64,000 nucleotides of DNA from an archaeon (GTDB lineage Archaea; Nanobdellota; Nanobdellia; Woesearchaeales; GW2011-AR9): assembly GCA_018670085.1 (NCBI GenBank), contig JABHRS010000036.1, positions 682 through 64,681 on the forward strand, given 5' to 3'. The notes under the pieces were generated by a model. It was not told where the DNA came from. It did not search any database and was given only the letters and a program-made list of their open reading frames with translations. The position numbers were made by a program, and so were the translations under genes. This document shows positions 10,945 through 12,732 of this stretch, piece by piece (within the stretch, counting starts at the first letter, position 1; the number at the start of each line of letters is the position of its first letter).

Positions 10945-11847
10945 CTAAACTTCAAAACTCATAAAGTCTTCTGCAAACTTTACTTTTTTATGATACTTCT
11001 TCGCTTCCTTCAAAAGTACAGAAACATCACGATACCTAATACTTGGGTGTGTGAGATAAACTTGTAAGGCCCCTGCTTTAGTAGCTAGCTCCGCACTTTC
11101 TTTTGCGGTCATGTGATCATACTTAACGGCCAATTTTTTATCCTCAAATAGAAATGTGGATTCAATTATGAGTGCATCGCAATTCTTAGCTAAACTGCGA
11201 GCACCGGCGCAAGGACGAGTGTCAGGAACGTATGCAAATTTACGTCCAACAACTAAGGAAGTCACATTTTTGCTTTTCACAAGTTTGCCACTGGCGCGCA
11301 CATTTTTTCCAGCTTGAATTTCAGCTAGCATCGGACCTTGCACTAATCCAGCTTTTTTCGCTTTTTTCATATCAATTTTCAGTCGATCTTTTTCTTTAAG
11401 TGAAAATCCAACACAATCAACGCTGTGCGAAAGTGGCTCAGCTGTTACAATAAAATCCTTTCCTTCAAGAATCACGCCACCAGCACTGACTTCGTGCAAC
11501 TTGTGAGGTAACCCATTCATACTAGGAAACGCTTTTTTGAAATGATTAAATTTTTTACGACTTCCCTTTGGCCCATAAATATCTAGCGTATGTCCAACTT
11601 GGTCTGCTGCCATCGTAGAGATTAAACCCGCAAGTCCAAGTGCGTGGTCCCCATGCCAGTGGCTAATGAAGATTCGTGTAATTTTGCTTCTCTTCAATCC
11701 AGCAATTTTCATTTGCCGTTGAATCCCTTCACCGCAATCAAACAACAAGTTCTCACTACCAAACGAGACATGAATCCCAGAGTGATTCCTTTCTTTAGTT
11801 GGTTGCATGCAAGTGGTTCCAAGGAATGTAACTTTCATTGTTGACAT
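10945..11847 (-). CDS. rnz: Ribonuclease Z (tRNA 3' endonuclease, metallo-beta-lactamase fold)
   Basis: MKVTFLGT start, the HWHGDH motif, and about 300 aa in length. Confidence 0.85.
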   Translation of the reverse strand: MSTMKVTFLGTTCMQPTKERNHSGIHVSFGSENLLFDCGEGIQRQMKIAGLKRSKITRIFISHWHGDHALGLAGLISTMAADQVGHTLDIYGPKGSRKKFNHFKKAFPSMNGLPHKLHEVSAGGVILEGKDFIVTAEPLSHSVDCVGFSLKEKDRLKIDMKKAKKAGLVQGPMLAEIQAGKNVRASGKLVKSKNVTSLVVGRKFAYVPDTRPCAGARSLAKNCDALIIESTFLFEDKKLAVKYDHMTAKESAELATKAGALQVYLTHPSIRYRDVSVLLKEAKKYHKKVKFAEDFMSFEV

Positions 11848-11893
11848 AGAGTAAAGAAAACATATAGCGCTACTTAAAATCTTCGAATAAAAT

Positions 11894-12048
11894 TGCAGTG
11901 TTGAAAATATTATGAGGGCGCTATGCAGGGGCCAAATAATTTTCGATAGAGCTAACCATTGCGACCTGAGTCTTCAAAGAAGGCGAAGTTGAGAAGTGGA
12001 ACCCGTTGCCCCGCCCCATATGAGCGCAGCGAAATGTTCAACACTGCA
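11894..12048. ncRNA. Unclassified GC-rich structured RNA candidate (strand undetermined)
   Basis: 12-bp closing helix TGCAGTGTTGAA (11894-11905) / TTCAACACTGCA (12037-12048). Nested 9-bp helix 11911-11920 / 12012-12020. The interior is much more GC-rich than its surroundings and has no ORF. Confidence 0.5.
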
Positions 12049-12081
12049 GAATATAATTAAGAAAAATAAACTAAAAAACAA

Positions 12082-12732
12082 TTACTCTAAATTATCAATG
12101 ATCTTACCAAGTTCTTCAATTCTGCGAATCTTCAAACCAAACTCTTGACGGTCACGTCGATCAATTAAGATCCCTTTCATTCCAGCAGCTAAAGCTGGGA
12201 TCATATCTGAATTAACTCCATCTCCTAAAAAGACACATTCGGATGCTGTTGTATCGAGTGATTCCATAACTTTCTTCAAAAATTCAGGATCTGTTTTTAT
12301 CAATCCCATATCACATGAGTAGAATACTTCAGAAAATAAGTCAGTCCATCCAAATTTTTCTAAACAGTTACTAACTGATTTAGCATCTGTGTTTGCAACT
12401 AATACAAATTTATAATCACTAGACAATTTACTTAAATTTTCTTTAATAAAAGGTAGTGGACGTGCCATTAACCATGACTTATTCCACATTCCAACTAGTT
12501 CATCTAATTGCGCATCTGAAACTTCAACTTCGAATTCAGCAGCTACAGCTTCAAATCCTTCACGCATACTAGGATAATTTTTTGTGAGCAGTACAGTTTG
12601 CATTCTGTTCACATACTCTGAAAAATCAATATCATTTAAACCGAGAATCTGTTTAATCTTTTTAACTGGACTGTATACTCCAATTTGAGCAACTGTGCCC
12701 CAAAAATCACATAATATATATTGAATTGTCAT
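12082..12732 (-). CDS. HAD-superfamily hydrolase
   Basis: N-terminal ILCDFWGT (DxxGT-type motif I), VANTD, and GDGVNSD (motif IV). Confidence 0.7.
   Translation of the reverse strand: MTIQYILCDFWGTVAQIGVYSPVKKIKQILGLNDIDFSEYVNRMQTVLLTKNYPSMREGFEAVAAEFEVEVSDAQLDELVGMWNKSWLMARPLPFIKENLSKLSSDYKFVLVANTDAKSVSNCLEKFGWTDLFSEVFYSCDMGLIKTDPEFLKKVMESLDTTASECVFLGDGVNSDMIPALAAGMKGILIDRRDRQEFGLKIRRIEELGKIIDNLE

Follow-up and report, generated by a model that had tools for sequence, protein, structure and literature searches.

Insertion sequences of the IS903-like type carry inverted repeats of ~18 bp, encode a transposase of ~307 aa and leave a 9-bp target duplication. Several bacterial groups have repeats of 100-200 nt that lie between genes and are bounded by inverted repeats, among them the Correia/NEMIS elements of Neisseria, the ERIC/IRU elements of enterobacteria and bcr1 of Bacillus; these form long hairpins once transcribed and can affect neighbouring genes. 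A fixed insertion distance from the transcription-initiation complex is known for Ty3 of yeast and TRE of Dictyostelium, which are retroelements guided by Pol III factors. Among archaea, a survey placed a Woesearchaea genome with the most MITE-dense (PMC11602168). The non-coding RNA repertoire of this host group is almost unknown, and literature searches on DPANN structured RNAs, on promoter-targeted archaeal MITEs and on the core motif described below found nothing specific.

Locus and fold of the element

The element studied here lies in a window of 64 kb (64,000 nt, the whole stretch of DNA that was analysed) from an archaeal genome of 1.48 Mb in 37 contigs. It comprises 155 nt (11894-12048) inside the 234-nt spacer between an RNase Z gene (rnz) and a HAD hydrolase gene. 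Its GC content is 48.4%, compared to 26% and 12% in the two flanks of the spacer. When 155-nt windows were taken across the 64 kb, mean GC was 35.6 ± 4.8% and 0.05% of them were as GC-rich as the element. Both the intergenic placement and the GC-rich island in AT-rich surroundings, as given in a preliminary description of the sequence, were therefore confirmed. The locus is identical in NCBI assembly GCA_018656565.1 and in many other assemblies, and a search for strain-level polymorphism found 0 differences across 11 near-identical contigs from different samples.

An Rfam scan of positions 11780-12160 returned nothing at the gathering threshold and merely two chance matches at E ≤ 10, while the scan of the whole window returned two tRNAs and nothing else. 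In the preliminary description it could not be fitted by eye to tRNA, 5S, C/D box, H/ACA box, RNase P or SRP patterns. It belongs to none of these classes, nor to any other Rfam family, even at the permissive threshold. A 50-aa open reading frame with a GTG start (11996-12148, plus strand) shares sequence with the 3' third of the element and with the end of the HAD gene, itself encoded on the minus strand; nothing supports its being a gene. The features of the locus are as follows.

10945-11847, minus strand: RNase Z-type metallo-beta-lactamase gene (rnz), with its ATG at 11847
11873-11880, minus strand: rnz TATA box ATTTTAAG, 26-33 nt before the rnz ATG at 11847
11885-11893, no strand: left 9-bp target-site duplication GAATAAAAT, abutting the inverted repeat; 8/9 match to 12049-12057
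11894-11905, plus strand: 5' arm of helix P1, the left terminal inverted repeat, TGCAGTGTTGAA, perfect complement of 12037-12048
11911-11920, plus strand: 5' strand of helix P2, UAUGaGGGCG, paired with 12012-12020 with one bulge
11925-11931, plus strand: 5' strand of helix P3, GCAgGGG, paired with 12002-12009
11962-11995, plus strand: near-invariant core, consisting of CGAC, a bulged C, U-A, tandem G.A-A.G, a hairpin (11970-11984) and GUUG, then AGAAG
12002-12009, plus strand: 3' strand of helix P3, CCCguUGC, paired with 11925-11931
12012-12020, plus strand: 3' strand of helix P2, CGCCCCAUA, paired with 11911-11920
12022-12032, plus strand: hairpin P5, a second hairpin of the form GA-(GC loop GC)-GA, repeating the motif of the core
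12037-12048, plus strand: 3' arm of helix P1, the right terminal inverted repeat, paired with 11894-11905
12049-12057, no strand: right 9-bp target-site duplication GAATATAAT; 8/9 match to 11885-11893
12082-12732, minus strand: HAD hydrolase gene

The overall shape is a rod, P1-P2-P3-P4, with P5 as a side hairpin. P5 was found in copies of subtypes A, B and B' (subtypes are introduced below), where its loop varies (GCA, GUA, AUA, GUUA or GAA). Three of the helices had been proposed from the window alone, and each finds support in compensating changes among relatives. The 12-bp closing helix P1 is complementary throughout; shuffling the 234-nt spacer 300 times never yielded a perfect inverted repeat of that length, the longest per shuffle being 6.6 bp on average and 11 bp at most. 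The nested, once-bulged helix P2 covaries among A-type copies, with AUG...CAU in some and UCG...CGA in others, and remains paired by way of G-U in the copy on metagenome contig L193, the probable ortholog of the window copy. The third pairing corresponds to P3 of the family, which carries a G-C to U-A double change in L193 and whose counterpart in B-type copies (helix 3) covaries in their alignment. Folding of the window copy as a single sequence gave a modest z = -2.3 versus shuffles on either strand. Therefore, support for the fold comes from the comparison with relatives and not from folding energy.

A dispersed family with a conserved core

We searched the window's own genome (G000) by BLAST with the element and recovered four further copies at 73-78% identity, or five with the window copy. 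A covariance model of the core (model R1) recovered 8 copies of 142-197 nt in the same genome, all of them intergenic. Copies within one genome are merely 60-78% alike, and there has thus been no recent burst. Among congeners, model R1 identified 7 copies in G002, 6 in G004 and 1 in G003, and no copy was found with it in G001. Within the same taxonomic family, 7 of 114 genomes matched, the window genome included; in an order-wide sample of 150 genomes, one matched besides the window's own. Pattern scans added copies in Woesearchaeota groundwater MAGs and in a Nanoarchaeota SAG, and scans of marine and other metagenome contigs yielded 100 stretches, with at least 68 distinct copies. A looser pattern scan of genome contigs returned mostly random bacterial coding matches lacking the hairpin, with no evidence of a module shared across phyla.

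The copies fall into subtypes A (to which the window copy belongs), B, B', C and D, which have the core and the nested helix plan in common but differ in their peripheral hairpins. A closing helix of 9-19 bp was present in all 26 copies with ends that could be placed; three others, truncated or atypical, were left out. The sequence of this helix varies from copy to copy. Neighbouring genes are unrelated, and orientation relative to them is near random (12 sense, 7 antisense). Some copies lie 3-20 nt before a start codon.

Several individual copies had additional features. An otherwise typical A-type copy elsewhere in the window's genome (L019:1416-1612, G000:C35) has an expansion segment: an insertion of ~45 nt, folded as two small hairpins, separates the 3' strand of P3 from that of P2. 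Two 5'-truncated C-type copies in one genome (L026:1520-1628 and L030, on contigs C183 and C159 of G105) are fused to an identical sequence of at least 60 nt at contig ends. This sequence recurs near the ends of other G105 contigs and is probably another repeat, or the end of an IS, that breaks the assembly. A D-type copy (L039:1435-1620, G026) is enclosed, beyond its own closing helix, by an additional inverted repeat of 16 bp, AATAAAATTTATTGTG / CACAATAAAATTTATT. At two syntenic loci, L013 in G004 and L036 in G002, the elements are 69% alike and of different subtypes, and a conserved palindrome, ATATACAAAAAAGTATAT, is shared ~25 nt downstream of the element.

The structure was assessed in an alignment of 11 B-type copies (made with MAFFT), on which P1, P2, P3, P4/P4b and the base of P5 were written by hand. 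Standard pairs occupied 94.8% of 461 cells, compared to 30-46% when partners were slid by 1-3 columns. Both sides had changed in 21 of the 45 pairs, and 0 of 500 shuffles matched any of five measures. Conservation and covariation in relatives, by which the preliminary description proposed that the candidate be judged, were thus both found. Among C-type copies, the internal helix P2 is formed by many different complementary sequences. The whole rod-like fold is kept through compensating substitutions.

Non-standard pairs in the B-type alignment were 36 G-U versus 9 A-C cells, or 15 versus 9 once two invariant wobble pairs were subtracted. G.A tandems and GNRA-like loops are confined to a single strand, the plus strand of the window, and the fold favours that strand.

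The most conserved part of the family is this internal core and not the termini. Its consensus is UCGAC-C-U-GA-(short GC-closed hairpin)-GA-A-GUUGAGA, followed by RGYGGRWC, and it varies little or not at all between subtypes A, B, B', C and D, in copies from both marine and groundwater genomes. The window core scored 65 bits (E 7e-13) under model R1. Across 35 distinct core sequences, 93% of cells were paired, compared to 31-49% with partners slid. Fold and core are unusually well kept, and the element may therefore be more than junk.

Known motifs were compared with the core and set aside. A K-turn or K-loop (L7Ae-binding) was judged by inspecting the aligned core (5' CGAC-C-U-GA-GC / GC-GA-A-GUUG); U-A and one bulged C border the tandem G.A there, and a 3-nt bulge is present in neither strand. 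For a hammerhead ribozyme, the GA-(stem)-GAA part alone was found; the upstream CUGA(N) half is missing and there is no Rfam match. A GGAAC/GUUCC pseudoknot of B-type copies competes with the covarying P2 and is lost in B' and in GAUC variants.

Target-site duplications, a partner IS and promoter proximity

C-type copies end in a conserved terminus, NN-GGTTGGTGCGAAA. When 25 of them were anchored on this terminal motif, the flanking 9-mers agreed at 6.1 of 9 positions on average in one exact register (four copies at 9/9 and five at 8/9), compared to 2.8-3.7 of 9 in the four neighbouring registers. In an unguided scan, flanks matched at 8/9 or better in 11.8% of copies versus 1.8% of mismatched flank pairs. 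Target-site duplications were also sought in B-type copies and were not found. Their termini are not conserved in sequence, and their outer stems differ at every site while the innermost 3-4 bp are constant. At L016, what looks like a 9/9 repeat is ambiguous, one side being 3 nt off register.

Loci encoding DDE_Tnp_1 were scanned for inverted repeats together with 9-bp direct repeats, and an intact IS of 1187 bp was located in a related genome of the same taxonomic family (L307:904-2090, G106:C185). It encodes a 306-aa DDE_Tnp_1 protein (1138-2058), has inverted repeats of ~17 bp, TGCTGTGTTGCATAA(A/T)T, and is bordered by a perfect 9-bp duplication, AATAATAAT; its tblastn matches are annotated 'IS5 family transposase'. 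Over its terminal 12 nt (L307:904-915), this IS agrees with the window arm at 10 of 12 positions. The comparison of IS and element found no internal similarity, so that the termini alone are shared. A resemblance of these ends to the IS903 end sequence ('IS903 group') is a lead only, the analysis having covered membership of the IS5 family. Perfect subterminal hairpins lie just inside both ends of the IS.

A search for DDE_Tnp_1 genes in the window's own genome found none. Other candidate partners were rejected: the DDE_Tnp_1 loci of G002 and G004 have no ends in common with the element, and a 1.3-kb candidate element at L231 carries no transposase. Models of the REP/RAYT or IS200/IS605-TnpB (omega RNA) type were likewise dismissed, for want of a Y1 or TnpB gene in the genomes that bear the element. 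Among five congeners, PF01797 was represented only by a broken gene in G003 and PF07282 was not found.

The same spacer was examined in relatives. It is empty, with 70-100 nt between the HAD gene and rnz, in G001, in G002 and in metagenome relatives L195-L198, in which rnz is 66-70% identical. In L193, where rnz is 79% identical, it is filled by the element of the window. In G003 and on contig L194, it holds unrelated closed, structured elements, and it looks like an insertion hot spot. The G003 element (L041:2462-2642, G003:C22:18721-18901) is ~175 nt long and closed, with an RNAfold z of -4.0 and no Rfam match; at least 41 copies of it, at 70-89% identity, occur in G003, and none in G000 or G001. 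The third, unrelated to the others, lies on the minus strand of L194 (1095-1262; GCA_041294365.1, JBGCVJ010725840.1; rnz 71% identical). It is ~150 nt long with a closing helix of 10-13 bp, a GC-rich second helix and z -3.9.

Proximity to promoters was evident at C-type ends. Reading outward, these have the 9-bp duplication, a purine-rich AAAAC-like run and a TTTAWATA box, and among 50 C-type ends there were 22 matches to TATA-like boxes at offsets of 14-16 nt, left and right about equally. The window copy follows the same order, with the duplication, then GAAG, then the rnz TATA box at an offset of 13, and the block around this box, CTACTTAAAAT, is kept in G002, L193 and L194. C-type copies and the window copy show this rule clearly; in B-type copies it is much weaker. 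Promoters that abut copies fire away from the element. As the rnz TATA box stands between rnz and the element, the element is outside the rnz 5' UTR. Adjacency to the gene for the tRNA 3' processing enzyme had been called suggestive though not evidence, and the suggestion did not survive: dispersed copies insert upstream of BRE/TATA elements, and the promoter here happens to be that of rnz. The position is thus attributable to promoter-proximal insertion and not to a link with tRNA 3' processing.

Origin and possible function

Taken together, the element is very probably a non-autonomous DNA transposon, old and fixed, from a MITE family that occurs in DPANN archaea of the Woesearchaeota/Nanoarchaeota type. 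The dispersed copies, terminal inverted repeats, 9-bp duplications, partner IS and filled and empty sites all argue for this reading. Against it stand the divergence of copies within a genome, the lack of a DDE_Tnp_1 gene in the window's genome and an IS that shares termini alone. B-type copies pose a further difficulty, as they have no duplications and their closing helices are wholly different in each copy, which is unexpected of ends recognised by a transposase. Conservation is also internal rather than terminal, the reverse of a classical MITE. The preliminary description had named a MITE with 12-bp terminal inverted repeats as the alternative to its RNA candidate. This alternative is essentially what the element appears to be, except that its copies are 60-78% alike and not identical. 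Of the candidate itself, the conserved covarying multi-helix fold outside Rfam stands, and the notion of a single-copy RNA gene gives way to 8 diverged copies of a dispersed family.

The mechanism that we propose is probable as a whole. An IS5-type DDE transposase, supplied in trans, would have recognised the inverted repeats that form helix P1. The element would have integrated ~4-5 nt upstream of the rnz TATA box, next to the BRE/TATA, with a 9-bp duplication. Insertion most likely took place in an ancestor shared with the lineage of contig L193, and the copy would have been immobile since then, in a genome that lacks the transposase. The cargo, with its rod-like fold and tandem-G.A core, does not derive from the known IS, that of G106.

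The copy in L193 is identical to that of the window at 135 of 154 positions (87.7%), about the level of second codon positions in rnz and the HAD gene (88-89%), while third positions in these genes are 49-55% identical and their synonymous sites are saturated between the window and L193. The differences include the double change in P3, several G-C/G-U changes and one repaired P1 mismatch. The same site, the same orientation and a similar duplication make orthology of the two copies likely but not certain; if they are orthologous, strong purifying selection would follow. High identity need not signify selection at the level of the host, however, and may reflect constraints on a mobile family, horizontal spread or concerted evolution: C-type copies from different genera also reach a likeness of 82-89% without being syntenic.

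This evidence bears on whether the copies could instead form a small ncRNA gene family, made up either of paralogous RNP scaffolds with two tandem-G.A protein-binding hairpins and an incidental dispersal, or of MITE derivatives domesticated long ago. We consider this possible but unlikely. Strong covariation in four helices, a core that is invariant across deeply diverged subtypes, the excess of G-U over A-C, the confinement of G.A tandems and GNRA-like loops to one strand, the GC-rich island in AT-rich DNA and the identity with L193 are all consistent with it. So are the copies that lie 3-20 nt before start codons, which must be transcribed with their neighbours. On the other hand, there is no conserved promoter upstream of the copies, their orientation is near random, and the duplications, IS partner and empty sites point to spread as DNA. 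In G002 and G004, syntenic copies resemble each other no more than they resemble paralogs within the same genome, and the similarity of C-type copies across genera again does not imply selection by the host. A riboswitch-like leader or 3'-UTR element of rnz or the HAD gene can be set aside as very improbable. Its place in the spacer between the two genes, and the family members found immediately before start codons, might have suggested such a role. However, the plus-strand fold is antisense to both genes, the TATA box separates rnz from the element, other copies adjoin unrelated genes in either orientation, and the syntenic spacers of G001, G002 and L195-L198 are without the element.

At the other extreme, the fold could be a functionless by-product of processes on DNA, whether the upkeep of arm complementarity through hairpin-templated repair or gene conversion between arms, or insertion of the core into pre-existing palindromes. 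The helices are symmetric and the minus strand folds almost as well as the plus strand; the site-specific outer stems of B-type copies, with their constant innermost pairs, fit this account, as does the closer likeness of copies within a genome than of syntenic copies between genomes, a pattern of concerted evolution. We nevertheless judge it improbable: the two invariant G-U pairs and the G-U excess favour one strand, gene conversion leaves the invariance of unpaired core nucleotides unexplained, and an unsystematic look found no empty site with a pre-existing palindrome. With the old MITE copy retained as the preferred reading, it can be advanced only tentatively that the plus-strand fold has a genuine function, whether as RNA or as folded DNA. 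Our best guess at its nature is that one strand may act as a folded single strand, RNA or DNA, and so aid persistence of the element or the host. About as tentative is the wider proposal that core and rod constitute a functional module (RNA or single-stranded DNA), carried as cargo by a BRE/TATA-homing IS5-type MITE, kept by the host through purifying selection and rewiring promoters in DPANN archaea.

As a MITE copy, the element is ordinary, and MITE-rich Woesearchaeota are on record (PMC11602168). Two features would go further. We found no paper describing promoter targeting at a fixed distance from BRE/TATA, in either orientation, for any archaeal DNA transposon; if true, the transposase would read promoter architecture or DNA bound by TBP/TFB. 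If the conserved cargo is real, what is kept is the internal folded core and not the ends bound by transposase. Were both to hold, the family would be a candidate mobile structured-RNA or regulatory module. For annotation, a warning follows that GC-rich covarying islands in the intergenic DNA of DPANN archaea often represent mobile repeats and not RNA genes in their own right.

Of the known systems, IS5-family MITEs are alike in most respects. The element is small, non-coding, intergenic and dispersed, has terminal inverted repeats and 9-bp duplications, and is matched in a related genome by an IS5-family IS with a 306-aa DDE_Tnp_1 protein, matching termini and a duplication of the same length. 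It departs from them in a core that is more conserved than the ends, in forming a covarying rod over its whole length, in the many B-type copies with site-specific closing stems and no visible duplication, and in the absence of a transposase from its genome. Correia/NEMIS, ERIC/IRU and bcr1 repeats are similarly intergenic, of similar size, folded and bounded by inverted repeats. However, they belong to another domain of life and have no sequence relation to the element, which is distinguished from them by its strict placement next to an archaeal BRE/TATA and by its tandem-G.A three-way core; a promoter or RNase III-type processing role, by analogy with these bacterial MITE-like repeats, is putative. 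Unlike the retroelements Ty3 and TRE, the element would be a DNA transposon, placed beside an archaeal TBP/TFB site to which its tethering is conjectural. What it has in common with them is a position at a fixed short distance from the site of transcription initiation.
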